A stretch of DNA of 20,000 nt from Psammoneis japonica (GCA_008632985.1 QPGO01000155.1:175444-195443); one strand, 5' to 3'. Numbered from the stretch's first letter, positions 1-20,000 are shown. Made by a program: numbers and translations. The notes: generated by a model not told the origin, from the sequence alone.

Positions 1-1
1 G

Positions 2-337: not shown

Positions 338-349
338 TTTGAATGCATG

Positions 350-520: not shown

Positions 521-807
521 ACCTGTAGGTAGTAACACTCACTCTTGCTATTGTTTGCTTTACCGGTTCCGAATGGATGATTTGAATCTGGCGGCGGGTT
601 TTCTGACCATATGCTGGATCCGTGTGTATGAATAATCATGGTGCAGTTGCTTTCGTGAAAGTGGCGATCGGTAAGTTACGGGTGAGCAGCGATATTCTTT
701 TGACTACAGAATCTTCGTGGCGCCTGCAGTTCGGCACATATCACGCACAGCACGTACCTCTACATTCAACATTGCGGATTCGGCATTGTGGGGATTGAAA
801 ACCCAAT

Positions 808-1280
808 TCCTGATTCAATGATTCCTTGTTAGGACTGAAAAAGCACCATTGGCTGTGGACAGTGTGGCGCTTGCACCGTGGACGGATTCAGCCTTGATTT
901 TGCATGGCGTACTTGACATTTTTTTGATAACTCTACTAGTCGGAACATTTTCTGTTGGGCGTTTCACAACGTAGTATGAATTTTGTTAGGAACACTTGGC
1001 GGGCTTACGGAGAGCATTGAAGAAGATGCACGTTCAAATACATGATGAAAGCTCGTACCTTTACCTAACTCATTCTGCAGGCTTTGTTTATTCAGCGTGT
1101 AGTCTACCAAGCTTTGACTCTGTCCAATGCTAGCGGTTCTCGCCTCTTGCAATTCTTGTTGTTCGATCTTATTGACACTGCTGCTACGGAGTAATTCACG
1201 AAAAAAGTCACAAAAATCTTGTCAATTTCCACTCACAACTCTTCAGAGAGAGGTCACCAATCGTCTTAACCGCAGAGATT
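808..1280 (+). repeat. Copy 1 of a diverged direct (tandem) duplication, offset about 680 nt
   Basis: Blocks cctgattcaatgattcctt / aagcaccattg / ggattcagcctt / tagtcggaac / gtagtatga / aggaacact / aggctttgtttattcagc / gtagtctaccaagc / gttctcgcctct / gcaattcttg / caatcgtc / gcagagatt recur in the same order at 1487-1950. Confidence 0.85.
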
Positions 1281-1486
1281 AAATCTACTTCGACTGACGG
1301 CTATATTTGTGATGTATGGGAGCTGCGATCTGGAATTTCTGCCCCGCGTTAGCTCCACAATCGCTGCCCTGTCGATGGATATTCACCCATTTTCAATACC
1401 TAGACAAAGGCACGGTCCGTTTTGAGCCCTGTAGAAGCATCCTACATGGGTGGTGGCGAATGTCAGTTTGGTCCTACTTGTGGATG

Positions 1487-1950
1487 CCTGATTCGATGAT
1501 TCCTTTTCGAGATTGAAAATAAAGCACTATTGACCATGGACAGTCAGTGTGGCGATTGCACCATGGGCGGATTCAGCCTTTTTTTATGAAGTACTTGGCC
1601 ATCTTTTTTAAATAACGCTATTAGTCGGAACGTTGCTGTTTGGGGTTGCACAAAGTAGTATGATTGTGTAAGGAACACTAGGTAGGCATACGTAGAATGC
1701 ATGGTGAAAGCACATACCTTCAATACACTCGTTCCGTAGGCTTTGTTTATTCAGCATGTACGAGTAGTCTACCAAGCACCAAGCCCAATATAAGTAGTTC
1801 TCGCCTCTCGCAATTCTTGCTGTCAGTCTTGTTGGTCACTGCTTCTACGATTTTTTAGAGCGGGACCAGCAATCGTCGAGATACTACGTACAGGCATCTC
1901 ATAGGTTTCCTGCTCCACCAGAAATTACACCAAAATTGACCAGCAGAGAT
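1487..1950 (+). repeat. Copy 2 of the diverged direct duplication
   Basis: Colinear with 808-1280, with indels and many transition differences. Confidence 0.85.
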
Positions 1951-3377
1951 TCGTGACGCAAGGTGGTTGATGGGCTTGGATCTCAAGCTCCTACAAGAGA
2001 TGTCAAACTGATGCTCGTCATGACTCATGGAGGATGCAACGGTAAAACTTCATGACAGTGCCATCGCGTGGGATCCAACATGGCCTCGTGAACTGGACGT
2101 CAACGTAGGACGGTGCATTTCTCTGAACGACATTCTTGAGTGAAGCGAGCCGGTGAGTTTAGCATCGTTGCACCCAGTTCGCTGCTCGTAATCCCTGCGG
2201 GAGAACTCAAGGGTGGCACATTCTGGATCTTCTGCTTCGACCTGGAGGCCTGAAGGACATATTTTTTTCTTGACGCTAAAAGATCATCTCGACTCGTGCA
2301 ACCGGCAGAGAGCCTTTGCGGGATCGACAAAATACACGAAAGAACTGCACTGGCGAGCGACAGAAAACAGCTTTTCGGCAACCTCAAACCGATGCTCTTC
2401 TTTTGATTTTTGATCAAGTTCTGCAGTTGTACTTCTGTTTCTAAAACCAACATGGACTTAATATTCTAAGACCAAACATGGCTGCTATCCTTCACGACTT
2501 GTTGACTCATCGGTACGCACGCCATTGTGCACTCCGCATTTTTTTTGGGCAGGATGTCGTCAGTCCGTCGCTTCTCCGTCAATTTGAACAATCGCTGTGG
2601 TGCGTGGTGCACAGGCTTGTGCGTGGTGCACGACGCGTGCTGTGGTTACGGAGAACGGTCGCGCATTGTCTGTCGGTGGTTGTAGGAACAGTTGCAGTTG
2701 ACTAGATTGTAAAGAACAACATGGCCAATCAAACCAGGTTGCTTTCTCTAGGGCTGAGTGCTTTTCTGGGGGCTGAAAAGCTCTGCAGCCAATCACCCGA
2801 CTTTTCGAAAAACTCACTCCAAAGAACCCCTCATCTTGTTGGGATGCCAACAATCTGGCGGGTCTGTGACCGCCTGCTGCAATCCGGGCATTTCCTGACT
2901 GTAATCCCAGACAAGTGTCTCTCATTGAGTCAGGTTCTTTTTCATTTCAGTTCAGAACCAATTTGGTTTACAGGCTCCTTGTTTCTAAATTGCACCCTGG
3001 AGCCTGCTTTGAACAGCGGCCATGTTCTTGTGCCTCTGCAACCCCGCGTTTGGCCTTTCTTGACAGTCACTGTGTTTGGTCGCTCCTTCATTTCATCTCA
3101 TGCTGCATGTGATGCAACATCAGCACCTGAAATGTCCTTCTAAATTGCATCCATTTGCAGCCCAACAAACAGCATGGTGAGCTTCTCATTGTCACAATGA
3201 AGCAATTGCAGTCAAAGCAAAACCATGAGACTTGGCAGCCTGCGCACCTTTGCTTCCTGTTGCAACATTCCTGAGGTCTGAAAGCTTGGGGAAGAATCTC
3301 TGCAGCTGTTGGTTTCTCTCTCAAATCATCTGCCAAGGGAAGGCCAAAGGATGCCATTGTGAACAAGTGTCTGGATG

Positions 3378-3655
3378 ACTTGCCTGGCATCAAACAAATG
3401 CGATGGACCTTTGCCTGGCATCAAATGAACACAAGGGACCTTTGCTTGGCATCAAACAGCTGCTGAATGCAGCGGACCTTTGCTTGGTGTCAAACAAATG
3501 CAACCTGCCTGTGCTCAGCATTGAAGAATGAATGTGATGTGCCTTTGCTCAGGATTGAATGAACATGGTGCACCTTTGCTGGGGATCAAATGAGTGCCTC
3601 ACTTTGCTCAGCATCAAATGAATGTGACAGATCTTTGCTCAGAGTCAAATGAGTT
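3378..3655. repeat. Degenerate 31-nt minisatellite, about 9 units
   Basis: Unit resembles ctttgc(c/t)(tg/ca)gcatcaaa(ca/tg)aatg..... The tgc(c/t) anchors fall at 3381, 3412, 3443, 3481, 3512, 3546, 3577, 3605 and 3636 (spacings 31,31,38,31,34,31,28,31). Confidence 0.85.
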
Positions 3656-6600
3656 GAATTTGAATTTCACAATGGAGCATCACAAACGCACTTTGCAGTC
3701 ACTTGGCTCTTCATCTCATCCTTGTTCTTTTCACTTCAAGAACTCTAAAATCAGCACTTTGTCAAACCCAGACTGCATCAGCATGACACATTGTTTTAAG
3801 TTTCTGTTTGCTCTGACTTTTCTGGATCACTGAAACTCAGGCAGGAAGCTTTGGAAGACACTGGACAGAATGGGGCTGGGCTTCCGTTTTCAAAAAACAG
3901 CGAAAGCACTTGCATGCTCTTTTGTCTGCTGTGGCTTTGACTGTTTCAATTTGCCTGTCACCAATCAATTGTTCAACACAACAATTGCCGGCAAGTGCCA
4001 GCGCCCCGTGGACTTTTGACAACAGAATCAAGCAACTTCAATCTTTGAGCTCACAGCTCTGCCCTCTCCAGCAGGGAGCACTGCAGCTTGAGAAACCTGC
4101 TGCATCAGCTGCACACACCAACAAAAGCAAAGCAGGAGTGGCCCTGCACTCTCTGAAGCAGTTGCTGAACAATCTCGCCACTGGGTCCCCACAGGAGCTG
4201 TTTCTGTCATCCAAAGAACCATTCATTGTGCACGACTTCATGTTCTCAAGTGGAGTTTCAAGATTTTGCAAAGTTTGCTGTCACATCCAGCACAAAATGT
4301 CAACCAAAATGTGTGCAAACTGTCTCTTTCCTCATGCATTGCCAGCTCTCAAACTCGTTGGTGTGATGGAGCATTTTGACATGGTTGCCCCATTTCGCCC
4401 ACTGGAAGAACCAACATTTCACACTCCTTTGTTGCTTGTTTGTCTCAAAGATGTGCTCCACTTTTGCAAAAAAATGATCATCATCAAGTCCTTCCCTGAT
4501 GAGGGCTTTGATTGCTCCCTTGCTGAACTTCATGTTGGTCCTGCATTTGACACAACACAGAGCTTGTTCACAAAAAGCAGTTTTGTGGCTTTGATTGTGA
4601 GCACTTGTCAGTCATCAGTGCCACATCATCTCAATGGGCAACAGCAGGCACTGCAGGGTGCTTTGCCACCTCCGGGCACAAGCGCACCCTTGTCATCTTG
4701 GTGCCTCAGTGATGAAGGATGAAATTTCATCTCAGGCTGAAAGCTCAACTTGGTGCTGGTCTTCTTGGAGTGTGAGAACTTGTGGCTTTTGTCATCTCTG
4801 CTGCTGGCAGCAACCACAACTTTGGCCTTGGTCTCCAGGCATTTGGCATTCATCAACTGTGTGAGGCCAGTTTCTGCAAGCACTGAACGCAGCACTTGCA
4901 ACTCTTTGGAGTGAATGTTGAACCCACAAGCCAGTGTTCCCAAAAAGGAATCCTGCCAGGCTTTGTGTGCCTCTTGACACACTTGTCTTGGTTGGTGGCA
5001 GTGGCTGTGGTGTGATGAAAGTTGTCAATGTGAACTTCAATCTTGCGGTGCACAACAGGTGCCCAGTGATGCCAAATGACAAACCAAATGATTCCATCCA
5101 AAGAGCAAGATGAAGCTGAAAGGTGAGAGATCAGCAATGGCGAAACTTTTCCCGGTGGTGCATTGAGGGGGTTGCCCATGGTGCATGAAAGATGCAAAGG
5201 CTTCAGACTTTCTTCTTATCAGCTGCTCACAGCAGTTGTGAAACAGCAGAAAATGAAAACTTGCAAGTGTGTGTGGCAAGAGTGAGCACCACATGATGAT
5301 GGGGCATTGGCAGACAGGGCAACAAGCAGTGGCCTCTGCCAGCCAGTGGCTGTGAAGCAGCAGCACAGCACTCACCAAGGAGGGGACACTGCATCAGTTG
5401 TGGGGCTGCCCAGCAGCAGGGCCATCTGTGTGGCACCATCAAAGCAGCAGCAAAAATCACCAGGCATCCCCACATGTTCCACCAACAAGTCCATCTGAGA
5501 GCAGGTGTTTGTCACAACATCTCAGTGACCATGTCAACATCAGACCATTTGAAGGCCAACAGCTGGGTTTTTGATGACTCAGTCAGGTCAAGGAGGACAA
5601 AGCAGTCTGTTGGGACAAATGCATGCTTTCTCTGCTTCCACCTTCTCAGCTTGCTTTTGCAGCCCAAGAGCTCAGGCTCACAGCACAGCAAGAAAATGAG
5701 GCCACTTCAGATGCAAGGAGTTGTTGAGGCAGAGGGGCAATGTCAACAAAAAAGAGCTCTGGGGTGTCATGTTTTGGCGCAGGCTTGCACTGCCACTGCA
5801 CAAGCTGTGCTGCTGCCTTTGAAAGTCAAAACTGTTGAAACAGCAGCAATTTTGGGCAATCTGGGAGCAGCCATGATCACAGTTGGCATCAACGGCTTTT
5901 CAGTTGCTTGGCATGACATCACTTGAAAGTTGCAGTGTGCTCACTGTCATGACAACAAAGGCAAAGCTTTCCTTGGCTGCACATGGTGTGTGCACCTTGC
6001 TTGGGCACAACAAACATTGCTGGCAATTGTCAACCTCACAAGGAGCACACATGCCCTGCATTGAGAGGCACCCCCAGTCCTTTGCAAGGGTGCAGTTTTG
6101 TGGCTTGTGTTCATTTGCTGTGCAGCTGTTGCTCTTGCACTCATGCATCAGTCTTCATCACAGAGCCAACAGGCTTCAGGCTTTCATGCCTGTTGTGGCC
6201 TGATGCTTGCAGCAACAGTTGTTTCCTTTGCTGAAATGGGGTGGTTGGTGCTGCACCACTGCACTTCAATTCAACGGCATCAAAATGAGAGACAAATCAA
6301 CATCTGAGGCCGTTTGCCCAGTTTTTGATCACTTGCACTAAAAGGGTGTCATTTGCTCTCAACTCAAACACCACTTTCTCATCTGCTGAGCTGCTGTTTG
6401 TGTGTTGGTGCAGCTGGGCTGGCTGCATGTGCTGTCAAGCCAATTTTCTGCCTCAATGGCAAGCTCTTCTTTTTCCCATTGCTTGCCAGTCAGACTGGAA
6501 AATTTGAGAACAACAGCCACCTTTGGCACATCTCCATCAACTGGAGGGGGGCAAGACAGGAAGCATCGCCGCTTTTTTCACTGTCCCAAGAACTGGTGAG

Positions 6601-7225
6601 ATGGTTGTGACAGAGAAGAAGTGCCCATTTGATGGCAGGCACATGCTGCTTTGCCTTCAGCACACATCTGCTGGGCTGCATTTTTTTCTGGCAATGTTGG
6701 CACACTTTCAAGGGCAGCAACATCTGCTCTGCCAATGAAGGCCCCCAGCACCTTCTAAAAAGGCAGCTCTCAAACATGCACAATCTTTGCTGCATCAAGC
6801 ATTTTGGGTGGCTTGGTGGAGGCAAACCAGCTGCAAAACAAAAATGGCTCAGAGCATTGCCAACTGCAAAAGAGCCTCAAATGCACAAAACTTTTTGTTG
6901 TCAAGCTTTTTTGTTGAATCCCAACTGCTTTTGTTCTTTTCAGAATGAAGTCCAGTGTGCACATCTCTGCACTTTGTTGCCATGCCAACAACGTCCAATG
7001 TTGGCACCATCACGGCTCACACACTGCCTCTTTGCAAAGGCATCATCACAAGCAGTGGTGCTGCAGAGTGTTTGCATGATGTCCTCTGTCTGGAAGTCTC
7101 TGTGCTGCTGTGCACAAGGAGCCATGTCTGTGGACAATTTGCAAAAGTCGTGCAGATCAGGGCACATGTGCTGTGCTCTCATGGATCTGAAGACAGCTCT
7201 TGGTGGCACCAATGACCCCCCCCCC

Positions 7226-7422
7226 NNNNNNNNNNNNNNNNNNNNNNNNNNNNNNNNNNNNNNNNNNNNNNNNNNNNNNNNNNNNNNNNNNNNNNNNNNN
7301 NNNNNNNNNNNNNNNNNNNNNNNNNNNNNNNNNNNNNNNNNNNNNNNNNNNNNNNNNNNNNNNNNNNNNNNNNNNNNNNNNNNNNNNNNNNNNNNNNNNN
7401 NNNNNNNNNNNNNNNNNNNNNN
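7226..7422. other. Assembly gap (N run) preceded by a C10 homopolymer
   Basis: N characters at 7226-7422; poly-C at 7216-7225. Confidence 0.99.
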
Positions 7423-10400
7423 GTGCCTGACTGTTCTTTGGTCTTTCATGACATGTTTGTTGCAAACATTGCCAGCTCTCATGTCAAGATGGCATTTCAA
7501 GATGGTGCCATTTGGTTGAGGAGCAAGGGCATCTCACCGCCCATGCTGTGAGCATCATGTGGGGAAGGTGTGCAAATCCAGAGCAAGACAGGGAAGCAAA
7601 TCAGCAGAAGAGCCTCTCATTGTGCAGAGCATGGGTGGCCAAAAGAACCAACTGCTGTGTCAGCTCATTTTCTCCACACAAGGGCAACACCATTGTGGCT
7701 GTGATCCTTGTGAAGAGCCCACCCTTGGTTTCCCAAGTTTTGGTTGTGGATTTTTCATTCTTGATTTTGGTGTGAATTTGCTCAAAATTGTGGTTGACAA
7801 TGTTCCGCCATTGCAGAGAATGTGCAGAGGCTTGTTCTTTGCTTTGCCCAAAGAGGTGCTCACATGAGTGATGACTGCTGGACTGGTGTGAATTGCTTTT
7901 TTGGGGCTTCCCAATGTCCAGCAGTGCGCAAGACTCCTCGAGCAGCGCCAGTTCAGAATCACTGCACATCACAAGAAGTGGGATGTGGCGGTGCTGTTGA
8001 AAATTCTCCAGCCAATCTTGTTCTTCAATGCAACTGGGAGAGTCTGCTTGCATGTCTGGGCAGTTGAGGCTTGGAAGCAGTTGGAAATTAATTTGTCAAG
8101 ACAAAGAAAAAGCACTTCCAAGATTGCTGCAATCAGCTCACAAGTGTTTTTGAAATGGCGGAGGGTTTTGTGGCAGGGTTGTCCCAGAAGAAATTTCCAA
8201 GAAAGGAGATGGGTTTAGCACAGATGCCAATGACACCTGGAAGAAAGAGAGGAACAAGTTGTTGGCAGCACTGTCAATGGAAGGTGTCAAGAAACATTGG
8301 CTTGTCTCAAAAGACCTGTGCTGGCAATTTGCACTGGGATTCACAATTGTCCCATTTTGGCCAAGGAGGCACTGCAGGTGTTGGACACAGGCAGGGCCAA
8401 CAAAAAACCTGAGGGCACAAGTCTTGTGCAAAATGAGAAGAAACAGCTCAAATGCAAAAGGTTGGGCATGTGAAAAAGGACTGTCCTTTGCTCAATGACA
8501 ACAGCGATCATTTGTTGGTGGAGACACATGACATCAGCTGTGGAGAGAAACAAGGCAGTCAATGTGGCACTGGATGGCATGGTTTTCAAGTGTTGTCCTC
8601 CTGCAGCCAGTGTGCATGAGGCCAATCCATTGATGGTGGCTTGTGCAAAGGAGTGTGTTGGAACATTGGGGAGCAAGGCAGTTTTCAACAATTGTGGATG
8701 AGGTGAAGTTGCACTCACATGAACTTTTTGTGAGTTGTGGGTCTTGTGCTCACTTTTCAGCTTTTGCACCTGCTGGCCAACATGGCAACAGTGGCAGCGG
8801 CAATGGAAATGCGGTGTTTGCAATCCACATGCGGCAAGTTTGGGGATCAGTGAGACCAAGTGTGTGCCACATTCAGCAAGCTGTGGAATCACAGCACCGC
8901 TGCAAGACCCCCCTCTGAAGTTTTTTTTGGCACAACAGGCTCCTGCAAAAGGTCAAAAGTGCCCACAAGTGGCCAATCAAGGTCCCACACAGAAAGCATG
9001 CAGGTCCAAGGAAAGGAAGCCATTCTGAACATTTTGGCCCAGTGTCACAAGGCCAATCTCAAAGCCACCAACAGCTGTTCATTTTCACTGTTCCATGCTG
9101 AAATTCACATGTGTGGTGCGTCATCCACAAAAAGGCTGCCCCCACACTTGGAAACCAAAAAGGCATTTTCTGTGCTTGTCATGAGAGAAAAAAAACATGA
9201 TGCTGTTGGTGCGCACACACTTCTTGATGCAGACAATGCTGTCTTGCACCTTGATCAATGGTGCGACAACCAACACATGATCAAAGAACAAGCCCCATGG
9301 CAGAAGATGCAGCATCATTGTTTGTTGTGCAATGTGCATTGCATTGGGCACAATTTCAAGTTGTGACATCATGCACCATGGAAATTTGTGGCTTTTTGTG
9401 CAGTGATGAAGCACAGCACAGTGAACTTGACACCTGCCAAGAAAACAGCAAGCATGCAAGAGCTGCATGTGAGCCCAAGACTCGGCCTCAACTTGCCAGG
9501 ATGTGGTGGTGCAAAGTGCTCAAAGTTGCCACAAGGATGTTCAGATTCTCAGCTTGCCAAAGTGAGGTGACTTTGCCAAATCTGACCTGCCAACCACCTG
9601 GAGAGGCCAGGTGCCACCCTGTCCTCTTCTTGAACAACTCTGAGCTAAAGCCTGCCAGCCAACATGCAAAGGAAAAAGTTGAGAAGGCTGGGTGGTTGTC
9701 TGCCAGGGAGTCTGAGCATCTGATGGCTCAATTGCACAGATGCACCTGCTGCTTGGCTGCTTTAAAAAAGAAAGAGCTGTGCAGAAACAAGTGTGAGACA
9801 ATGAGCATGCTTTTGCGAGATTCTTGCTGGCAATGGCACATGTGCCATGCTGGCAGACACACCAGACAACTTGTCAATCTGCAGAAAAATGCAGCAATTG
9901 GCAAAAGTGCGCCACTCACAAGTGTGCTTGTTTTGTTTGGCAATGGGGCCTGGATTTGACTTCATTCTAGAGTTCCCCAATTTTGCAGCAGAGCTGCAGA
10001 AAGTCTCTCCCACACACACACCAGATGACTTGTTCATTGAACAAAGCAAAGCAAGGGATTTTTTTTCTGACAGAGTGGCAAAATCATGCTCAACAGGAGC
10101 AAAAAAAAGATCCACATGTCTCTCTTTCTTTTTCAACACAGACAAAACCAACAAAAAAGAGGGTGCTGCAGTGTGGCAGTCACCAAGCAAACAATTTTGC
10201 AAAAAGTGTTTCCAAAGAAAGTCTGTTGGGCCTTGTTTGAGCTTTTGAGCAAGGGGGGCTCTGGGGGGCACAATGCAGCAAGAGAAGCAGAGCTGGTTGG
10301 AGGCAGCATGATGATGTGTGTTGTGCAAGCAAGTTTGAGTGGTGGACCTTTCCCCAATTTTTGTTGCTTCTTTTCTCATGTTTGATCATTTTAAAGTGCT

Positions 10401-11077
10401 TGAGCAGTGTGAACAATCTTTAAAAGGTGGTCATTTTTCCTGAAAACAAAGTGACAGGAACAAGCTGCTGTGTGGCTGCCACTGGTTTTGCTGCCTCTTG
10501 GAGCCATTTTTTTTGTCTCTTCTGCTGCATTTGGCTGTTTTTAACAAGAAATGTCAGCATTTTTTACAGTGCAACAAGGAGCTCAGATGCAAAAAGTGAC
10601 TTTCTAACTGAAGTCATTTGGACAGAACAATCAGGAGAGCTGAGTTTTGCTTTTTTTGGTGCACACCATTGGCTGTCAGAAAGACCAAGTGGTGGTTCGC
10701 TGACCTGTGTGGGAGTCTTGTGGGTGATCTGCATGCTGGCATTGAAAAAAGTTTGTTGACTGTGAAGCAACTGTGCAATGTGAAAGACAGCAGAAGAGGT
10801 GACAACAAAATGTTGACAAATTTCAATGCTTGGAAAAGAAGTTTTGCCTCAGACAAGTGAAGCAAAATGGCCACAACATCTGGACATTGCCAATGTTTTT
10901 CATCTGGCTTGCAACATTGGACACTTGTTGCACTTGCCCACGGCATTTTGGTTGTCATGCACCACCAAAGCTGAGTGCAAAATCTCTCTTTTTTGTTTGC
11001 ACAAAAAAAATTGATGTCATCCATGACAGCACAATGCAAAAAATGTGCAAGTGCATGAGTCACCAAGACACTCTCCT

Positions 11078-11146
11078 GTTGTTGTTGTTGTTGTTGTTGT
11101 TGTTGATGTTGATGATGTTGATGATGTTGATGATGACGATGATGTT
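11078..11146. repeat. Compound trinucleotide microsatellite (GTT)9 grading into (GAT/GTT)n
   Basis: gttgttgttgttgttgttgttgttgttgatgttgatgatgttgatgatgttgatgatgacgatgatgtt. Confidence 0.95.
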
Positions 11147-12689
11147 TGCAGCTGGTGCCAAGTTGACAGAGACAAGGGTTGTGAAGAGAAATCTAAAGGA
11201 GTTCCAGAAAGAAAGACACCAAGCATGCAAACATCAGCGAGCTCTCCACAAAACAAAACAAAACAAAGCCACAAAGAGCAACTCAAATTGCAGCCAAATG
11301 ACCAAGTGGGCTGCAGCCTTGGGCTGTTGACCTGTCTTAGAAAATGAAAGTTGCCTTCTCACCTTGGTTGCAACAGCTGTTGGTTCATAAATGGCAGGGT
11401 TCATGGCAGCAGCATGGTGCATTTTGGTGTGCGCAACTTGCAACTTGAGTCACACAAAACACATCATCTTCATTTTGGAGCTCAGCAGTTTTCTTGCGCG
11501 GGTTTGGCACCAAACATGATGCAGAACACACAGAAACAAACCAAAAACCTCATGATTCATTCTAAAGTTTCTCATTTGGAGATCTGTCTGCCCCAGCAGT
11601 GGTGAGCTGCAAGTGGCACAATGCCAGCAAATGGCAGTTCCATGCACAAGCACTGGCCAACCTTTGCGAGACTGGAGGGCTTTGTTGTTTTGCAGCCACG
11701 TTTCTGTGTGAATGTTGGCACAACAAAGTTTGTAAAAATGCCCAGCTGATTGACAAAAACATTGCACACTGCACTCAAAAGTGTGCTGGCTGGCACAACT
11801 GCTGTTGCACTGGATGTTTGCAGGCACTCAGCACACAAGAAAGAGAGGCAAGTTTGGCGCCAATGTTGGCTCCTCCTGTCATGGTGGTGAGTTCCCCCAC
11901 CCAAGCAACCATGGGCTGCTTTGACTGGCAATCATCATGATTTTGCCTCAGTCCAAGTTCCAAAGACACACGCCATCAAACACACACTGGAAACCTGCCT
12001 CTGTTGTGTGGGGCGGGGAAGACCTCACAACAAGAATGACTTGGCTCCGGCAGATCACTCTGATTCGCAATGAGGAAGAGAGGATCCACTCGCCCTTGAC
12101 AGACAACTGAAGTGACCACTGCAATGGTGGCGACAATGTGTTTCAAAGAGTCAAATGGCAATTTTGTGTGCTTTGTGCAACTGACAACTGAGCAAAGTTT
12201 GTCCAGGGTTCAAATGGCACGAGCTCCGAACTCCCGAGACTTCCTTCCTGCAGCTGGATCGCACAACAACAGCACTGCGGTCAGCAAGCAAGACAATGAC
12301 GATGGTGCTTCTGTGTCGCGACGACGACTCTTTGTCTCTTCCTTGGTGACAAACTCATCCATCATGGCTGAGGACAGCACAGTCACAATGCCTCCTTTTG
12401 TCCGTTTGCATGTTCCTTTCATCATGCGTGACAACAACGCATGCCATTGAGCCGGTGCGTTTTGAGGATCTTCTCAGCAATGAAGAACATCGTCATGCAG
12501 CCTCACCACCCTAGACCGAGAGCCCGAAGGATGTGAAAGAACTCTACACAAGTCAGCCATTGGATCACTTTTCTATGGAGGAACTTGTGTCTGACGCTGA
12601 AGGATCTTTGCAGCAGCGGTGCTTCTATTCGGATCGATGCGCAAGGTCATCTTCAACGCATGGAACTTCGTTTTCATCCTTGTGGCAGT

Positions 12690-13545
12690 CTTTGTGGCCC
12701 TGAAAGTGGCGAAGAATGGTCAAGCTTGTACACAACAAGCAGCTGTGGAGATTGGTGTCTTTGGGACTGAGAAAAGACAAGGATTTCTTGGCCATTAACG
12801 TCAAAGCGAAAACCGCAAGATGGTGCACCTGCAATCGTACAGTCCGCATCAGAATCACCTTTGCTTGGTGTTTGAATTGTTGGGGATGAACACACAAGAG
12901 GTTTTGAATCAGCGGCAGTTCAGAGGGTTGCCCTTGACAAAGGTTCGGCCGCTGCTGTTGAAAACAATGGACGGCAGCGTGAAGGAATTGTGTTGGCGAT
13001 CAATTGTTCGACCGAGAAGGATTTTGATTCAAGCAATGTCAAGCCAATTGCTTTCGGTTCGGCTTGCTGTGAAGGACACACGGCTCACACCTACATTCGA
13101 TCTCGGTTTTACCGCAGCCCCAGAAGTTCTTCCACTCAAGGGCCACCCTGCGATTCTGCTTTTTGACATGTGGTCCTTGGGACGCGTGGCGGCAGAACTG
13201 TTCCTCGGATTGTCCATTGCCTCACGGTTATGAACACGATTGGGTGAGGCGAATTTGTGAAACAATTGAACCCATTCCAGACATTGCGCATGCTTGGCGA
13301 AAGGTGCGTGTCATTCTTTTTATTTGATGCTTTCTGTTGAACGGACGCATGTGCTAATTTGTCGTTGCACGCTGCTCGTCGTTGTTCAGTGCTAAATTTG
13401 TCCAAGCACTTTGCAAACTCCATTTCCAAGTCAGAAACTACTTCAACTCCGATGCAGCCACAAACCGGCACAGACAGCGACAAGAAGCCATCATGTTCGC
13501 CTCCACCTAAACAATTGTGGCGCATCAAGACACAGCGAGAATGTG
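12690..13545 (+). pseudogene. YAK1: YAK1/DYRK-family (CMGC) protein kinase pseudogene
   Basis: Motifs across frameshifts: VALKVAKNGQACTQQAAVEIGV (subdomains II-III), HQNHLCLVFELLGMN..EVLNQRQFRGLPL, FGSACCEGHTAHTYIRSRFYRSP/EVL, GHP..DSAF/DMWSLGRVAAELFLGL, YEHDWVRRICETI..IPD, LSKHF, LWRIKTQREC. The HCDLKPEN catalytic loop is deleted or garbled and no glycine-rich loop was found. Confidence 0.88.
13304..13389 (+). other. Spliceosomal intron (86 nt) in the kinase pseudogene
   Basis: AG|GTGCGT donor at 13304, GCTAAT branch-point-like motif at 13353-13358, TTCAG acceptor ending at 13389. Kinase similarity stops and resumes at these points. Confidence 0.7.
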
Positions 13546-13629
13546 TGCGACCCTCTTTTCCGTCAAGAGTTTTCCAATTGCCATTCTTTTTGTCGTCATG
13601 GGTCATGGGTGGTCTGGCACGATTTTGCT

Positions 13630-14332
13630 TTAAAATGCGGCGCCCGTGTTCAACCAAACCCCTTGTTGCTGAGCACGACCTTGGACAAACACATCTTCCA
13701 TGACAGCAGTCACGGCTTCCATTTCAGATGGATCTTCGCTCGCGTCGGAAAAGCTCTTGACAAGGGCGTCCTGAAGTGGTTTGGGCAAGTTCCGGTTGCC
13801 GCGAACGCAAAGCATGCCGTTGGCACGCTCACGCAACAACGACGGGCATCATCGGCAATGGCAACCAAGTCCTGCACGTGTGTCTTGCCGTTCTGAGGCA
13901 TGGCCTGCATCGTCAACAGCATCAGCACAAGGCGACAATGGACAGGTGTTGGCAAAGTGTCGAGTGAGGTGTGCAGTGTCACCTGATCCGACTCAAGCAA
14001 CACCTTCAAGGACGCGTCCTCCTCGGCACCAAATGATTTGTAACTGGCCGCGAGCTTCTTGGGATGCTTTTTTATCCTTTGTCGGGTCCTCAACGATTGT
14101 TGATGTTCTGATGGAGACCGCCCTTGAGATTGTCGACCAAGCCTGAAAACGGGCCTGGTGGATTCGTGCGGCACATGAGATGCTTGATGCTGATGGTCGC
14201 AACCTGTTTGGCAATCTTTGGACAAAGTAGACGCTCTTGACCAACAACCTGGCACTCAATGACAGTCTTAATTACCTCACTTGCACTGTTGGCGGATGAT
14301 TGCAAGTGGACGATGTGAAATCGAGTTTTCAA
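13630..14332 (-). pseudogene. Frameshifted remnant of an unknown protein-coding gene
   Basis: Overlapping minus-strand ORFs read as one helical protein across frames (SANSASEVIKTVIECQVVGQERLL... / IKKHPKKLAASYKSFGAEEDASLKVLLESD... / LPKPLQDALVKSFSDASEDPSEMEAVTAVMEDVF). No family recognised. Confidence 0.35.
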
Positions 14333-14944
14333 AAGCGCGAAAGAGATGTTCTGATTACAGTGCGTTTTCTAATTTTTGTTTTGTTTTCATGATCTTGATC
14401 TGCAGGCCTGACACTCTACAGCGCGCCAACTGATCCCTCTCGAGCCCCAGTCCCAGTCCCATGCCCCATGCCTGCCATGCTAAACCCAACAATCCGTGAG
14501 CTTCTACCCTTGCACGCAAAAAGCCCATCTAATGTTTGTTTCTCGTTTTCTCATTCTATTCCGCCAGTCCTGCAATGGTTTTCGACTTGAACATTGGAAC
14601 AAGTGTTGCTGCTGTTCAACATTGGCTTTCAGAGGCGATCTAGATCTTGCATTCTCTTCGACCGGCACACAAAACCAGTTCCGAAACGGCGGCCAACTCA
14701 CATGTGTCCTCTTGACAATGCATGCCTCAATGCGAGATCTGGACAGCCTCTTCCAACTTTGCTGCTGCAGTTTAAACTCGAGTGCCAAGATGCAAGTGAA
14801 TGCACACCACAAGCTGACATCTGAAACAATTTCTGCCCAACACATCTTCACGACAATGCAGGCCTGAACGAAAAATAAGATGCACAACCACAGACGATCT
14901 TCTCCACCCGCAACAGCAAAAAACTCAGCCTCGTCGCACTCCCC

Positions 14945-16030
14945 CACAACTCGGGAGCCGGACATTCCTCCAGGCACTTGTCAATCGTCTGCCTCTCGCT
15001 CCCATCCATGCATTTAATGTCGCAACACGCCACGAGATCATCATCAAAGTAAACCCTGAGAATCTTGGCCAATGCACGAGTGTTGTTGCGGCAGTGATGC
15101 ACGTCTTGGCCCTTCTCGTACTTGGACGTCGGTTTTTTGGGGGCGGGAGATAGATTCTTTTCTTCTGTCTGTCGCTCTCTGCCGTTGGAGAAGAGGATGG
15201 TGTAGCGCGGAGTTTTGTCGTCAAGGGTGAATGCCAATGATCTTGGCAGAAGCGACGTCGTTGGCATTGCTGTTCGTGCACTTGACGTTCTCACCGACTT
15301 TGCACTGGGGCTTTGGAGGGCTCGGCTTGTGAGGCGATGCTTCAATGTCGTCTTTTTCTGACGTTGGTGTTTTTGGGATGGGCGATGGATTCTTTTCAAC
15401 CGTCTGCCTCTCTCTGTTGTTAGAGAAGAGGACAGTGTAGCATGGAGTTTTGTCGTCGCGGTGAACACTGATGATTTTGGCAGAAGCGACATCGTTCGCA
15501 TTGTTGTTCGTGTGCATGACGTTCTCGCCGATTTTGTGCTGGTGCTTTGAGGGCTCAGCTTGGGAGGCGATGCTGCGATGTCGTCTTTTTCTGACGTTGG
15601 TGTTTTTGGGATGGGCGACAGATTCTTTTCAACCGTCTGCCTCTCTCTGTTGTTAGAGAAGAGGATGGTGTAGTGCGGAGTTTTGTCGTCAAGGTGAATG
15701 CCAATGATCTTGGCAGAAGCGACGTCGTTGGCATTGCTGTTCGTGTACAAAACTCTCTCACCGACTTTGCACTGGTGCTTTGGAGGGCTCGGCTTGACAG
15801 GTGAAGCTTGGACATTGTCTTTTTCTGGTTTGACGTTGCAGTGGCACTTCGGAAGGCTCGGCTTGGGAGGTGAAGCTTTGACGTTGTCTTTTTCTTTAAA
15901 ATCGACGGAGGGTGGGGGGTTGTAGTTTGAAGACGGCTCGTGAGCCACTCCACTGTTGGAAGCAGTGCCGTCAGCAGAGCTGAACGCAAGAAATGGAACA
16001 TCAAAGAAAGAAGGTGACGTTGGAAGCAAG
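14945..16030 (-). pseudogene. Frameshifted gene for a protein with four Tudor/SH3-like repeats joined by Pro/Lys-rich linkers
   Basis: Three near-identical units (x-K-VGE-V-x-TNSNANDVASAKIIGIHLDDKTPxYTILFSNNRERQTVEKNLSP) plus a diverged fourth (YEKGQDVHHCRNNTRALAKILRVYFDDDLVACCDIKCMDGSERQTIDKCL). Linkers are of the EKDxxxASPxKPSPPK type. There is a -1 nt lesion near 15548 and a +1 nt lesion near 15225. The fold assignment is from pattern recognition only. Confidence 0.75.
15130..15830. repeat. Three tandem ~234-nt coding repeats, plus an extra ~66-nt linker repeat to ~15895
   Basis: ggagttttgtcgtc at ~15209, ~15444 and ~15678; ttggcagaagcgac at ~15243, ~15477 and ~15710. Confidence 0.95.
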
Positions 16031-16640
16031 CGTCATGACAACAGGCAGCACAACAAGAGCAACAAAAACTTACGATGCAAATGGCTCATTGACGTCGTAA
16101 CGACACGTCTTGCGTTGCGCCTCCACAAAGTGGCTGCGACGAACGTGGGGAGGCTGGTTAAATTCAGAACAATTCCACCTTGTCTGCTTGGGCAATGCCG
16201 TAGTAAGGATCGCACAGAGCCAGAGGAGAAATGCAACCACAAAGGTTCGGACGATGATCCAGACGTCGATGTTCCTCAACAAGCAACACAAGACGAAGCA
16301 GAGCACCGCGCACACTGGGAACTCTTTAGGATCCCTGCGCAGGCAAGAAATGGCTCGGCCACAGTCACCAATGAGAAACAAAGCGTTCAAGAAGAGGAAA
16401 GCGTACAACATGGTGACATTGTTGATGCGATGCTTTACTTTCTTGCCAGAACTGCGATTGTGAGACGAAGAAAGCACATGGGAAAGTGCGTGCTTGCGCA
16501 CTTCAGATTTTCGCGTGCAGGGAATCGTGCCCGCGAAGTGGCAAGTTGGTTTTGACACAATTTAAACCGGCACTGGGTTTGATCCAAGTAATCATCTCGA
16601 ATCCAAACTCGGAATGCCGCCACAATCTTCATCGTCATGG
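16030..16640 (-). pseudogene. Hydrophobic multi-TM segment, possibly the decayed N-terminal part of the Tudor-like repeat gene
   Basis: Hydrophobic runs MLYAFLFLNALFLIG, AVLCFVLCCLL and IIVRTFVVAFLLWLCAILTT. ORF 16033-16242 is in frame with ORF 14848-16029, separated by one TGA that could derive from CGA. Possible start MTMKIV near 16638. Confidence 0.4.
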
Positions 16641-18109
16641 CCACAGCACTTTTTCTTTGCTCGTTTGCTCCTGACGCGACTTCGCCACAAGTTTGTGAGG
16701 CAACAAATGTGTGTCGTGCTTTCCGTTGACATGCACATGAAAGACACATCATACATTGGTTGTGGGGCTGTTGATGGACAAAATTTTTGTGCTGTTGATT
16801 GATCACTTTTTCGCATGCACTGCCCTGCCAGCGCCTGACCGCACCACAAGACCATGGTCAACACTTTGCTGCTGCGGTCCGGAATCTCTCTCTCAGCAAA
16901 ACCACCTGACACCCTTGCTTTACAATCGCCAGGGGATCGCTGGAAATGACTGTGTCTGGTTTTTTCTCAGATGACCTGCATCCTGTGCAAGGTGGCTCGT
17001 GGAGTGAGTTCCATGCTCTTTGTCCAGCCAGGATGCCAGGAACTTGTGCGATCTGCACGCAATGGTTTCGATCATGCAAGAGCTTCAGAACCATCCCGAT
17101 CACATGGAGATCAGCTTCCAGTCAGAAGAACATTCAAGTCTCCAGATCTGGGGATCTTTCTGAACATGGTTCCACAATCTCCATGGATTGGCTGCTTGTG
17201 CGACGTTGCTTGCTTTGACGGCATCTCCTGTTGCGAGCATGCTGTCAATGCAAAGCTTTGTGGATTCTTTGGATTCTGCTGTTGTTGACCCAACAACAGG
17301 GTCTCATGATTTGACCACTGCACATTGCACCAGTTGCTCAACTTTGTGGAACGAAAAGACCCAGAAACCGGAAATGTCGCTTTTGATGCTGTTCGGACAG
17401 GCATTTTTCGAGATGGGAATGTGGTGCAGTTTGACCCCTTGTCTCCTGCAACGGAACAACCAACATGAGGTGCCTCTGCCTCCTCCCAAAGGTCCAGGTG
17501 GATTGCAGCTGCAGCACCTGAACGGGGCACTGCGTGGCTTCGGATTTGCCCTTTCGGTCATTTTAATTCTTCTTTCCATTGCATTTGGGGTCTGAACCAT
17601 CCGCTGCAGAATGGGCAGAGTCATCAAGGCGTCACAGCCCATTTTCTTGCTTTCAACATGTGGCGGTGTCTTGTCAATGGGGTGGGTCATTCTGTGTGAT
17701 GCTGCAGCCATCTGTGTTTTGCCGCATTGAGTGAAGACAGGGCTCGTGCAATGTTTCCATTGCGCACTCTTGTTTGTGTTGTTGAGGTTGGCCATCATTC
17801 CTTGCATTTCAACATCAAAATTGAGAGCAAAGCGAGATGGATGAGATGTTTCTTCTCAAAGCACACCTTGGCTGTTCATCCTTGGTTTCATTCTTGCGCC
17901 AATGGTCGCTCTCCTGCTTGTTGATGCGGAGACGCTCACAATTTCAATGGGATGGATCTCTTGGCATGGGAGCATGGGCCACTCCAAATGGATGTGTGTG
18001 GGCAGACAGTGGAGACAGGAGGAGCCAGCAAGTCTGACTTGTTTGAAGGGTGCGTGTCTGTGCCAGCCATTGCCAAACACAAGTGAATTGGCAGCAGGGC
18101 TTCCCATGT

Positions 18110-18830
18110 CATCCGGGATGTGGGCAAAACTTTTGTCACTTCTCTCAAATCTTGCGAGTGAGTTTTCAAGTGTTCTGCAACAGGCAAAGTGGAGAGGAGT
18201 GCTTTTCAAGTGCAGAGGAAGTGTGGATTCATTCCAGTTGAGTTTGCCCTGGGCCCGTCTCTTGATCTAGAGAGTGCAGCCAAGGCTGACCCCGAAACCT
18301 TTTCTGAACATCTGTTTGGATCTGCCAGTCGCAGTGATGATGTGCACAAAGATTTTGGATGGAAATCAATTGGGATGCTGAAAGCAATGATTGGGCAGGC
18401 TGCAGGAGGGATGGTGGCTGGGACACAACAAGCAGCAGTGATGACATGGTCGAGAACCATCACATTGAGAGCACTTTGGATCAAAATGTCAAGGAAATGA
18501 ACAAAGAATGCAGTGCCAAAGGAATTGAATGTTGCTGCACATTTTCCAATCTTAGAGGAGATGTGACTTTGATTGCACCTCGCCCAGAGGAGTCTGTCTC
18601 CATTGCTCAGAACATTGGATTCGCGCATCTTGCCAAATGTGTTGAGCAGAGATCCTCAGAAGAGGCAGGAGAGCTGAAGTCTTTGGTTGCAAGAGAGTGT
18701 GATGAGATGCCAATGAAGCACAGGGGCTCAAATCAACTGGCATTCCTGTCCACAACAAATGACTTGGTGGTTCATTTTTGCATTTCCAACTGGAGCAACT
18801 TTCAAAGTGTTGCCACTGTGAAGCATTCTG
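18110..18830 (+). pseudogene. DUF6940-like protein pseudogene
   Basis: Across frames: SEFSSVLQQAKWRGVLFKC, VEFALGPSLDLESAAKADPETFSEHL, TFSNLRGDVTLIAPRP, FAHLAKCVEQRSSEEAGELKSLVA, AFLSTT / LGGSFLHFQLEQLSKCCHCEAF. These match my recollection of the family pattern FEFVL..ADP.AF.EH, F.NLGGDA.L..P, Y.HLA.F, WLSTSGLGV.WLH.RLD..PKYY.Y. Confidence 0.75.
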
Positions 18831-18884
18831 TCTGGCATTGGAATCAGCAAGTGCGTGAGAAAATTTTGTTTGCTCAGCGGCGTG

Positions 18885-19515
18885 ATTCCATCTTGGCATT
18901 GCTCGGTGACATCAGGCTTGTCTCAAACCAATTCACTGCATTTGAAAAGACATTGTTTGTTGTCGGAAATCAGGAGATGTGCAACATCCAAGGCAGGAAA
19001 TCAAGAAGGGTTTCGGGGCAGCGGGGGTGGTGGCTTGCATGCAGAGGAGAACAAGATTTGCTGGAGAAGGAGGCACTGGATGTTTGTGGTGTCCGTGTGT
19101 TGGGAACATCACTGTGGTCAGATGCCGCAGTGCAGGCCGAAATGTCAATGAATGAGCAGCGCGCTTTGTCATTCACCCAAACGGACGATGGCACAGAGCT
19201 TCAAAATTATCAGCAAAAAAGAAACAATTCAATGGTGTCGAGAAAATCTGCAGTGGTTGCGGGATGAATTGGTTGAGGCACCGCATGAAGGGATTCTCAC
19301 CACATGCCTCAATTGGAAGGGACTGGCCATCCCAGGTGTGATGTTGCTTTTCATCCGATTTGACCAAGCTCCTCTCATTCCCAATCAGTCTCCAGAAATG
19401 TGGTCACACCTGCTTCAATTTCATTGGAAACACACATCCACTCTCCAACCAGTGGGGTTGTAAAGCCCATGAGAAGCCTGGTCATTGTACAGATGGTTTG
19501 GTGGTTGGAATCAAC
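18885..19515 (+). pseudogene. Calcineurin-like metallophosphoesterase pseudogene (N-terminally truncated, internally deleted)
   Basis: ILALLGDI (GD motif), FEKTLFVVGNQEMC (GNHEYY-like), LEKEALDVCGVRVLGTSLWS, SMNE, LQWLRDEL, CGHTCFN (GHTH-like), SNQWGC (SNQxGY-like). The first DxH motif is absent and there are several frameshifts. Confidence 0.8.
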
Positions 19516-19619
19516 CAAACCCCAGTGCTGTTGGGGAGGAGACAATGAGTGTGCTGACAGGATTGGAGGTGAAGTTCAGCAGGCACGGTCAAGCTCAGTG
19601 CATCCATTCTGGTTCTGAT

Positions 19620-20000
19620 GTCATGTTGGCTTCTGTGTTGCACATCCTGACTGGGCAATCATCAAGAGATGCTCTTGGAAACTGGATGCATCATGTGCCT
19701 CATGGCGCAACTTCTTCAAACATCTTGCTGCCAACTGAGTGCTGTGCGCAGCTCTTGCCCAAGCCCATGGCATCGGCACACCCGGCATTTGACCAGATAA
19801 ATCCATTGGACAAACAGCGTTGCAATCTCATTGACCGCACTTCATGAGCATCCAAGTTTTGTGCCAAAGCCACCACAACATCAGCTTGCACCTGTGTCTG
19901 TTCCATCATTTCTGCATCGGCTGTGAGGTTCTTGTCATTGCCCATGATGGAGGCCCCTGACTCTGTGCCACAGTCACATGACAAGGCTTGCTTCATTTTG
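19620..20000 (-). pseudogene. Possible decayed coding fragment running off the window edge
   Basis: Protein-like text KNLTADAEMMEQTQVQADVVVALAQNLDAHEVRSMRLQRCLSNGFIWSNAG; no family recognised. Confidence 0.25.

Follow-up and report, generated by a model that had tools for sequence, protein, structure and literature searches.

Hypermutation of the TpA dinucleotide has been described in Bigelowiella natans, where TpA-to-TpG/CpA changes arise de novo in mutation-accumulation lines at ~1,000-fold over background (Mettrop et al., bioRxiv 10.64898/2026.01.13.699255). In the available text of that preprint, 230 of the 231 mutations in two regions are A>G/T>C, every one at TpA; the genome contains 124 TpA-poor, CpA+TpG-rich clusters; and the process hits integrated giant-virus and virophage DNA. 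The authors favor the deamination of adenines preceded by T and name an ADAT2 candidate (Bn78255), and the same text contains no mention of CpG (10.64898/2026.01.13.699255). In diatoms, DNA methylation has been described as mostly CpG methylation over repeat blocks of up to ~30 kb (PMC5124317), and loss of DNMT5a is reported to strip methylation and derepress young transposons in a diatom (PMC9998398). Here we analyze a DNA stretch of 20,000 nucleotides (the window), most of which is nearly devoid of TpA.

Several deaminases provide further points of comparison. Transition hypermutation by deaminases is directed at viral or selfish nucleic acids both in ADAR hyperediting of double-stranded RNA and in APOBEC3 hypermutation of retroelements. 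ADAR favors a 5' U, edits after A almost as well as after U, and favors a 3' G, and APOBEC enzymes give C>T changes. The natural substrate of TadA and ADAT2-ADAT3 is A34 following the invariant U33, with the bacterial TadA reading UAC, and early TadA-derived adenine base editors preferred YAC. We know of no natural TadA/ADAT enzyme that has been shown to edit chromosomal DNA regionally.

Dinucleotide composition of the window

Observed/expected (o/e) dinucleotide ratios were computed separately for the four blocks a, b1, c, and b2 (Table 1). In b1, TpA occurs 21 times against 608.8 expected (o/e 0.03; Poisson log10 P = -226), i.e., at a frequency of 0.0024 (21/8,803). The three longest TA-free runs extend over 1,430, 1,420, and 1,333 nucleotides (nt). 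CpG is likewise scarce in b1 (61 versus 494.2 expected), whereas TpG and CpA reach o/e values of 1.82 and 1.90. The equality of the latter two (1,022 TpG and 1,020 CpA) indicates that the change is strand symmetric, and the combined TA and CG deficit of 1,021 matches a TG and CA excess of 945, with the CpG share counted. The dinucleotides AA and TT are not depleted (o/e ~1.3; AA, 1.33). In b2, there are 7 TpA versus 194 expected and 65 CpG versus 179 expected, and 55 TpA are left in block c. The depletion spans all frames and both strands of noncoding relics.

Table 1. Features of the window with their coordinates, strand, and the evidence on which each is based
Feature	Coordinates	Strand	Evidence
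Block a, ordinary-composition flank (internal control)	1..2700	.	TA o/e 0.62, CG o/e 0.97
Diverged ~680-bp tandem copies in flank	806-1188 and 1484-1849	.	Pairwise comparison
CpG-rich stretch directly before transition zone	2495-2674	.	Contains 19-bp tandem repeat at 2600-2646
Left transition zone, TpA and CpG thinning	2700..3140	.	TA/CG positions, 200-nt counts
Block b1, saturated	3001..12000	.	TpA nearly gone, CpG strongly depleted, TG/CA ~doubled
31-bp tandem array within b1	3379..3632	+	TRF rows 3380-3458, 3574-3654
Assembly gap, 197 N	7226..7422	.	Run of N
Block c, multicopy partly mutated element	12001..17000	.	TA o/e 0.18, CG o/e 0.84, raised X1 word depth
DYRK/YAK1-type protein kinase relic	12691..13282	+	tblastn of homologs, BLASTP to P0011, weak Pkinase match
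233-bp tandem repeat, 3 copies, and 69-bp subrepeat	15125..15895	+	Tandem-repeat detection, copy alignment
Block b2, saturated, leaves window end	17001..20000	.	TA o/e 0.04, CG o/e 0.36
Calcineurin-like metallophosphatase relic	18881..19512	+	DUF6940 match, alignment to P0002

The low TpA is regionally confined: a single boundary within the window, at ~2700-3140, separates it from the normally composed flank. The depleted block measures at least 17 kb and continues past the right end of the window. It is not uniform, as the segment from 12 to 17 kb is a multicopy element that is only partly mutated. CpG is codepleted in the most TA-poor parts, so the block bears two decay processes rather than one, and TA loss and CG loss covary along the window (Spearman rho, 0.66; 39 intervals of 500 nt). 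The CpG component has the signature of ordinary CpG decay, with CG o/e values of 0.12 in b1 and 0.36 in b2 versus 0.97 in the flank and a gain of TpG and CpA. Fungal RIP can be ruled out, as TpA is lost rather than gained and the G+C content is 0.474, against ~0.457 with the changes reverted; for the window as a whole, it is ~0.48. A first-pass annotation made from the sequence alone had argued that neither RIP nor deamination of 5mC could explain the TpA loss, and in this it was right; its by-eye TpA counts (23 in 1-600, 1 in 3800-6335, and 21 in 3100-12000) were exact on recount.

Tandem copies and comparison with a public run

Within the 233-bp repeat, the same dinucleotide reads TA, TG, and CA in the three copies. 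Its alignment has 37 columns with transitions only versus 17 with a transversion; 28 of the 37 lie within pyrimidine-purine dinucleotide pairs, and TG and CA cosegregate in 8 column pairs (shuffle mean, 0.72; 0 of 10,000 shuffles reach 8). The copies of the 31-bp array likewise differ mainly by transitions (RY identity of 0.88 to 0.98 versus plain identity of 0.57 to 0.68), and 4 dinucleotide columns contain both TG and CA (6 of 8 cut copies aligned). Tandem copies also segregate CG, TG, and CA at single dinucleotides. By comparison, in the diverged copies of the flank, which serve as a control, transitions and transversions are equally numerous (60 of each). These copy-specific states, together with the Tyr-to-Cys/His and Arg-to-Gln replacements in the gene relics described below, show that the changes arose in place. 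The TG and CA outcomes are not clustered by strand (runs test z of -1.4 and -0.8, weaker than in control pairs) and hence give no positive indication that single strands were edited processively.

We further compared the window with one public sequencing run (X1), which is not a second sequencing platform and may represent an alternative haplotype or related material rather than an independent line. Its contigs span all 30 depth bins of the window and carry the TG/CA bases with their regional boundaries. Word depth in X1 is 500 to 1,400 over positions 12674-16675 versus ~76 to 130 in unique parts, and a large part of b1 has the depth of single-copy DNA. The window and the X1 contigs diverge by ~0.4 to 0.9% even within the flank, and their 351 differences comprise 276 transitions and 75 transversions. 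Among the 40 differences listed, 4 adjacent doubles are TG<->CA swaps, the window has CG where X1 has TG/CA in 8 cases and the reverse holds in 3, and there is one case each of window TA versus X1 TG and window TG versus X1 TA.

Gene relics

Frameshifts (frames 1, 3, and 2) and an in-frame stop codon interrupt the kinase relic, in which the HCDLKPEN catalytic loop is missing. At four conserved Tyr positions of this relic, the codons are now TGT (C), CAT (H), CAA (Q), and TGC (C); three are retained, and several Arg residues appear as Gln. Among the matches listed for it (at least 120), all 8 of the 8 named organisms are diatoms and none of the proteins is from Bigelowiella; its segment HLCLVFELLGMN is identical to that of Fragilariopsis. 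The metallophosphatase relic runs through frame 2 and then frame 1, matches Pfam DUF6940 (E = 1.3e-7), and has its catalytic GNHE changed to GNQE. None of the 6 Tyr residues of its homolog P0002, a protein with the PF00149 domain, is kept; they appear as C, T, L, F, C, and H.

No viral or transposon family was recovered by Pfam in the 144 open reading frames (ORFs) of at least 70 aa, where heavy decay may mask hallmarks, and the read-through frames of 2701-5700 and 13300-16900 gave no family either. Within b1, no ORF of at least 70 aa has a significant Pfam match to a recognizable gene family. A homolog search with the ORF at 3817-4719 recovered 0 homologs among 1.84 billion representatives, and a search with the ORF at 9255-9956 gave none. 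The relics that can be recognized appear to be of host type (a diatom-type kinase and a metallophosphatase) rather than viral, which argues weakly against viral or foreign DNA as the target here.

These results bear on the remaining claims of the first-pass annotation, which had proposed a regional, strand-symmetric TpA-targeting process over 2700..20000 acting as a genome defense. Both TA>TG and TA>CA indeed occur, as seen in the b1 counts and the TA/TG/CA triads of the tandem copies, and the mass balance, triads, and relic codons bear out a regional process; the block is uneven, and the codepletion of CpG had been overlooked. Of four gene relics said to have Tyr changed to Cys or His, two (the kinase and the metallophosphatase) show the pattern and the other two were not located. 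A role in genome defense finds no support, as the window ORFs of at least 70 aa yielded no viral or transposon hallmark and the relics are of the kinds named above. The annotation also knew of no eukaryotic pathway that leaves such a signature, a view now out of date given the de novo TpA hypermutation reported in the B. natans preprint (10.64898/2026.01.13.699255).

Surviving TpA dinucleotides and relative rates

The TpA dinucleotides that survive in b1 are biased in context: 17 of 21 are Y-TA-R versus 23% in the context pool, and the TAY:TAR ratio is 4:38 versus 125:105 in the flank (Fisher p = 2e-8; survivors, TAA 26, TAG 12, TAT 2, and TAC 2). This suggests T-A-Y as the target, although the bias, seen at 21 sites, could stem from the creation of TpA rather than its removal. 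In block c, TAT is clearly more depleted and TAC is not. From the composition of block c, and assuming flank-like starting values, TA was lost ~9 times faster than CG; if at equilibrium, the rate of TA loss would be ~97 times that of TA re-creation from CA/TG. The strong loss of TA in block c alongside nearly intact CpG makes the two processes separable, and this block is probably younger than the surrounding DNA.

Hyperediting of the ADAR type via RNA copies does not fit the undiminished AA content or the survival of TAA and TAG over TAT and TAC. Moreover, nonretro host gene relics and tandem arrays were mutated in place, which points to DNA as the substrate.

Interpretation and alternatives

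We propose, with a probability of roughly 0.7, that the window takes in the border of a chromosomal block that bears repeats, is in decay, and is probably silenced, and in which two mutational processes, each specific to a sequence context, acted in place. One would be a very fast conversion of TpA to TpG or CpA, amounting to A:T>G:C whichever strand is affected. Its most likely agent would be a candidate TadA/ADAT-like adenine deaminase that acts on DNA and turns A into inosine, to be read as G; the T preceding the target A would parallel U33 ahead of A34 in all tRNA substrates of ADAT/TadA. The first-pass annotation's idea of a TadA/ADAT-like deaminase is the same hypothesis as that of the authors of the B. 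natans preprint. The other process would be the usual decay of methylated CpG to TpG/CpA. TG and CA are doubled because both processes yield the same products, and their effects on G+C would be opposite and almost cancel out.

One alternative that we regard as improbable, though less so than those considered below, is that the window belongs to the 124 TpA-poor clusters of B. natans itself, in which case only the CpG observation would go beyond the preprint. B. natans has a G+C content close to 0.48, near that of the window, and the assembly has scaffold gaps. A subgroup of B. natans coding sequences has, according to the available text of the preprint, a mean TpA frequency of 0.0018, near that of b1. 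Against this origin stand the exclusively diatom organisms named among the listed kinase relatives and the exact Fragilariopsis match. Furthermore, the stretch was found in runs of a single study, though many B. natans runs would be expected, and its divergence from X1 in the flank far exceeds the value of 1.5e-4 reported for T0 against the B. natans reference (10.64898/2026.01.13.699255). An unlikely explanation is that thymine is modified instead, with a TET/JBP-type hydroxylase making 5-hydroxymethyluracil (5hmU) at TpA in silenced DNA that is sometimes read or repaired as C. A T>C change at TpA is an A>G change on the opposite strand, which makes the two indistinguishable by sequence, and older biochemistry indicates that 5hmU prefers TpA. 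However, 5hmU pairs with A, and we know of no instance in which it causes T>C near 100 to 1,000 times background and of no such hydroxylase in diatoms; nor does the Y-TA-R pattern of survivors have a stated link to its chemistry. In dinoflagellates, 5hmU is reported to be of enzymatic origin and to contribute to transposon silencing (PMC11572971).

A single upstream cause would account for the shared blocks of TA and CG loss: T:G mismatches from 5mC deamination might recruit noncanonical mismatch repair, in which an error-prone, Pol eta-like polymerase mutates A:T at TA. This scheme is modeled on phase 2 of antibody hypermutation, in which mutations arise during gap filling. We consider it very unlikely, as the hotspot of Pol eta is WA and such targeting should lower AA, yet AA and TT are in excess in b1; Pol eta also yields many transversions, whereas the differences here are mostly transitions. 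Moreover, block c has lost 82% of its TA with CpG nearly intact, so TA loss need not await CpG deamination, and for the regions mutating at TpA in B. natans the available text reports no CpG component. Least probable of all is foreign or ancient DNA with an inherited or selected TA- and CG-poor composition (e.g., word avoidance), or an artifact of sequencing or assembly. Some viruses do show strong dinucleotide avoidance, but tandem copies in place differ in their TA/TG/CA states, host-type relics are altered at conserved residues, and the depletion affects every frame and both strands of noncoding relics. An artifact of chemistry should affect the whole genome and yield solely C>T, whereas the contigs of the public run share the bases with their regional boundaries. 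The tandem copies and relic codons thus already largely refute this last possibility.

Comparison with known systems

Under the proposed combination of TpA hypermutation and CpG decay, and judging from a single relic gene, with the taxa in the atlas search being mixed, the window probably represents a second lineage with TpA hypermutation, a diatom. If so, it would extend what has been described by a saturated depletion that is coupled to the decay of CpG, by gene relics of host type, and by survivors that are nearly all Y-TA-R. The coupling of TpA and CpG loss is without precedent and could be a coincidental overlap.

Of the systems compared, B. natans shares with this locus both TpA>TpG and TpA>CpA, strand symmetry, regional confinement, and the TpA-poor, CpA+TpG-rich outcome. 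In contrast to it, depletion here is saturated (TA o/e of 0.03 versus 0.45 in its NCLDV region, according to the available text), is coupled with CpG depletion, affects host-type rather than viral relics, and suggests a T-A-Y target. The host is probably a diatom (a stramenopile) rather than a chlorarachniophyte (a rhizarian), and the events, seen arising de novo in B. natans, are known here solely from sequence and the X1 polymorphism. Like RIP in ascomycetes, the process is regional, dinucleotide specific, and transition only, destroys genes that lie in repeats, and leaves a lasting trace in base composition; unlike RIP, which makes TpA from CpA and lowers G+C, it destroys TpA, and no dependence on duplication is evident, with much of b1 at single-copy depth. 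The decay of 5mC in methylated repeats would explain the CpG>TpG/CpA half and the block pattern at tens of kilobases, but it cannot remove TpA. As to the TpA half, the U33-A34, UAC, and YAC preferences of the TadA/ADAT enzymes and base editors resemble the T-A-Y preference suggested here.

Dinucleotide depletion and block structure

A recount of TpA reproduced the tallies of the first-pass annotation exactly (23 at positions 1 to 600, 1 at 3800 to 6335, and 21 at 3100 to 12000), and the observed/expected (o/e) dinucleotide ratios of TpA and CpG differ from block to block (see the table). The left edge of the depleted region lies at about 2700 to 3140, and its right side extends past the end of the window. 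In the long saturated block b1, the Poisson log10 probability for the scarcity of TpA is -226. The longest stretch of the window devoid of TA spans 1,430 nt. CpG, which the first-pass annotation overlooked, is depleted alongside TpA, and the two ratios track each other (Spearman coefficient, 0.66; 39 windows of 500 nt each). The products are in surplus, with 1,022 TG (1.82 times the expected number) and 1,020 CA (1.90 times) in b1, such that a combined TA and CG shortfall of 1,021 roughly equals a TG and CA surplus of 945. AA/TT shows no depletion in the same block (o/e, 1.3). The G+C fraction is now 0.474 and would be about 0.457 with the TA and CG changes reverted; since the two losses push G+C in opposite directions, the composition profile remains flat across the boundary.

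Two side observations concern CpG. A CpG-dense stretch coincides exactly with where the depleted block begins on the left; it is a candidate boundary element or unmethylated island. The CpGs remaining in b1 favor a 5' G or a 3' C (folded 5' neighbors: G, 54; C, 28; A, 20; T, 20), a bias that may reflect a methyltransferase or repair preference.

Table. Blocks, repeats, reading frames, and gene relics in the window
Feature	Positions	TA o/e	CG o/e	Remarks
Block a, normal flank	1-2700	0.62	0.97	
Flank tandem copies	806-1188 and 1484-1849			unit of ~680 bp; 68% identical
CpG-dense stretch	2495-2674			~20 CpG in 180 nt
19-bp tandem repeat	2600-2646			within the CpG-dense stretch
Block b1, saturated	3001-12000	0.03 (21 vs 608.8 expected)	0.12 (61 vs 494.2 expected)	
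31-bp array	3379-3632			
ORF	3817-4719 (+)			301 aa
First multicopy family	7338-9338			
ORF	9255-9956			
TGT/TGA trinucleotide microsatellite	11077-11146			unit TGTTGTTGA
Block c, multicopy	12001-17000	0.18	0.84	
Second multicopy family	12674-16675			
DYRK/YAK1 kinase relic	12691-13282			frameshifted
233-bp repeat	15125-15827			3 copies
Block b2, saturated	17001-20000	0.04	0.36	
Metallophosphatase relic	18881-19512			catalytic motif GNHE now GNQE

Origin of the changes in place

Tandem copies, gene relics, and contigs of X1 (a public sequencing run whose contigs align to the window) establish that the TpA and CpG changes arose within the block. In a MAFFT alignment of all three 233-bp repeat copies, 37 columns vary by transitions only, as against 17 with transversions, and 28 of these 37 sit in pyrimidine-purine dinucleotide pairs. 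TG and CA are both present at eight column pairs, whereas column shuffles gave a mean of 0.72 and none of 10,000 reached eight; two of the eight are complete TA/TG/CA triads (e.g., GATAGA/GATGGA/GACAGA). Likewise, TG versus CA segregates at four dinucleotide columns of the 31-bp array in an alignment of six of the eight cut copies, the two of odd length being left out. The diverged tandem copies of the flank, which served as a control, differ by 60 transitions and 60 transversions.

The X1 contigs span 30 of 30 bins and bear the TG and CA bases of the window; they come from one study, possibly of a haplotype or related material, and do not constitute a second platform. A single study is listed as containing the stretch, with no RNA data set. 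Their divergence from the window is about 0.4 to 0.9%, flank included, and 276 of the 351 differences are transitions. Among the 40 differences listed, four adjacent doubles are TG<->CA swaps, eight are CG in the window against TG or CA in X1, three are the reverse, one is TA in the window against TG in X1, and one is TG in the window against TA in X1. The swaps can be read as two independent opposite-strand hits on one ancestral palindromic dinucleotide, suggesting that the process was active after the sequences separated.

Several further observations concern repeats and copy number. X1 word depth is 500 to 1,400 in block c, as opposed to about 76 to 130 in unique parts of the window, and this range of depths marks two multicopy families. 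The first of these is fully depleted of TA and CG though multicopy at at least 90% likeness, and joints and loose ends are numerous around 8384 to 8772. For the flank tandem copies, word depth is about 330 to 345 across 1 to 1334. An RY-alphabet self-comparison recovered no terminal repeats flanking block c or b1. TG exceeds CA in 15001 to 16000 (52:28 and 59:22 per 500 nt; G-C skew, +0.16 to +0.25), and because this interval overlaps the 233-bp array, duplication has probably amplified the state of a single copy. The microsatellite may have been a TAT/TAA repeat before editing.

Kinetics and sequence context

Block c has lost 82% of its TpA, with 55 remaining, while its CpG is little reduced; assuming flank-like starting values, this contrast implies that TA disappears about nine times as fast as CpG. 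On the assumption that b1 is at equilibrium, TA is lost at about 97 times the rate at which it is re-created from CA or TG. A runs test revealed no strand clustering of TG and CA outcomes (z = -1.4 and -0.8, a weaker signal than control dinucleotide pairs gave), a pattern more consistent with numerous independent hits to both strands than with a small number of long tracts on single strands.

The TpA sites that survive in b1 are skewed in context: 17 of the 21 are flanked by a 5' pyrimidine and a 3' purine, an arrangement that makes up 23% of the context pool, and no survivor is TAY on both strands. The TAY:TAR ratio is 4:38 in b1 versus 125:105 in the flank (Fisher P = 2 × 10−8). This pattern suggests that the editing target is T-A-Y; the sites are few, and a bias in how new TpA arise would be an alternative source of the skew. 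The undepleted AA/TT and the survival of TAG and TAA tell against signatures of the ADAR-like or Pol eta-like (WA) kind.

Gene relics and open reading frames

Four gene relics had been proposed at first pass, of which we located a metallophosphatase and a kinase; Pfam, read-through frames, and ORF homolog searches did not reveal the other two. In the metallophosphatase relic, the positions of six Tyr residues of its sole homolog (P0002, bearing PF00149) now encode C, T, L, F, C, and H. In the kinase relic, conserved Tyr codons now read TGT, CAT, CAA, and TGC, with three retained, and several Arg positions encode Gln. Its motif HLCLVFELLGMN matches Fragilariopsis exactly, and all eight organism names among the 120 relatives listed are diatoms (Thalassiosira, Fragilariopsis, Phaeodactylum, Nitzschia, Seminavis, Attheya, Cylindrotheca, and Skeletonema), with no Bigelowiella protein among these 120. 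A metagenome scan with this relic confirmed no relative. Two atlas searches resolved the family without the taxon, and a cluster look-up of 10 homologs yielded no organism names.

Among 144 ORFs of at least 70 aa, only the DUF6940/metallophosphatase relic exceeded the Pfam cutoff, below which lay weak matches to Pkinase, 7tm_6, polyprenyl synthetase, and DUF families. The read-through frames 12400 to 13601, 2701 to 5702, and 13300 to 16901 yielded no family besides the kinase, Rfam and tRNA scans found nothing, and the ORF at 9255 retrieved no relatives. By our estimate, TGA density alone predicts about 0.2 frames in b1 as long as the 301-aa ORF, which has no Pfam family and no homologs among 1.84 billion representatives. 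A scan of viral contigs found one locus, positions 3001 to 3651 of a 45-kb IMG/VR contig, encoding a 30%-identical relative of P0002, perhaps a hint that the metallophosphatase relic has a viral connection, and of little weight as to origin.

Proposed explanation and its rivals

We favor, with a probability of roughly 0.7, a three-part reading. The window would cross into a repeat-bearing block that is silenced and probably methylated at CpG; this block would be undergoing erasure by TpA editing of the type described in Bigelowiella natans plus 5mC deamination; and the agent of TpA editing would most plausibly be TadA/ADAT-like. Methylation in diatoms is chiefly at CpG, where it blankets stretches of repeats as long as ~30 kb, interspersed with gene-rich DNA that is unmethylated (PMC5124317), and it depends on DNMT5a (PMC9998398); such methylation would account for the CpG part of the signature in a conventional way. 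Taken alone, the step from TpA editing to a putative TadA/ADAT-like deaminase acting on DNA is tentative, its odds falling somewhat short of even. In all known TadA/ADAT substrates the edited A follows a U, and the bacterial enzyme TadA reads UAC.

Among the rivals, a thymine modification at TpA appears improbable. Mismatch-repair-coupled, error-prone synthesis set off by CpG deamination would link the two losses; the absence of AA depletion and a block c whose CpG is almost untouched contradict it, and we consider it very improbable. An inherited composition or an artifact is contradicted by the evidence for changes in place, leaving it a negligible chance. The first-pass interpretation is partly supported: a regional TpA-to-TpG/CpA process stands, and its casting as genome defense finds no support here, as viral or transposon hallmarks were found neither in the ORFs searched with Pfam nor in the read-through frames 2701 to 5702 and 13300 to 16901, and the relics are of host-type genes.

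Implications

The coincidence of TpA editing with CpG decay points to targeting via methylated or silent chromatin. A broader proposition, possible though rather doubtful, is that a diatom has chlorarachniophyte-type TpA editing that prefers T-A-Y, runs to saturation, and is aimed at CpG-methylated silenced chromatin and not at viruses as such. If so, the editing system would be old or recurrent across the SAR supergroup, and it would kill silenced DNA in a manner that is permanent, G+C neutral, and hence easily missed, a functional mirror image of fungal RIP. Its T-A-Y preference would be the anticodon-loop context of TadA/ADAT, and the pattern of survivors focuses the search for the enzyme on TadA/ADAT-like deaminases. 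As the two decays cancel in G+C, composition scans of the ordinary kind miss such blocks, which may be widespread in other genomes. We know of no natural eukaryotic process editing chromosomal adenines that was recognized before 2026. Diatoms are ecologically dominant, and CRISPR and methylome tools exist for them; one with this scar would be a tractable host for enzyme discovery, and a natural DNA adenine deaminase would interest base-editing technology.

Comparison with Bigelowiella natans

The first-pass statement that no eukaryotic pathway with this signature had been described is superseded by a 2026 B. natans preprint. Of the 302 nuclear single-nucleotide mutations in its mutation-accumulation lines, 231 lay in two regions, an integrated giant-virus region and a virophage region; all but one of these 231 (230) were A>G or T>C, every one at TpA, and the rate of ~6 × 10−7 is three orders of magnitude over background (bioRxiv 10.64898/2026.01.13.699255). 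That genome has 124 clusters poor in TpA and rich in CpA and TpG, and the agent proposed in the preprint is an ADAT2-like DNA adenine deaminase, an idea shared with the first-pass annotation. B. natans stocks differ by 1.5 × 10−4, and the gap between X1 and the window is far larger. This gap, the diatom names among the relatives of the kinase relic, its exact match to Fragilariopsis, and the occurrence of the stretch in a single study make a diatom or close relative the likely source and B. natans itself an unlikely one. The preprint text mentions neither CpG nor diatoms, whereas CpG is co-depleted in the window. Our literature searches, whose coverage of subscription journals is thin, found the signature in this preprint alone and none for diatoms. 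So far a single alga underlies the sole report, and finding the scar in another, unrelated lineage would make the mechanism general. The kind of process is thus already known from one preprint; the window probably represents its second lineage and offers three leads beyond that report, namely, the coupling to CpG decay, the T-A-Y motif, and saturation with G+C unchanged.
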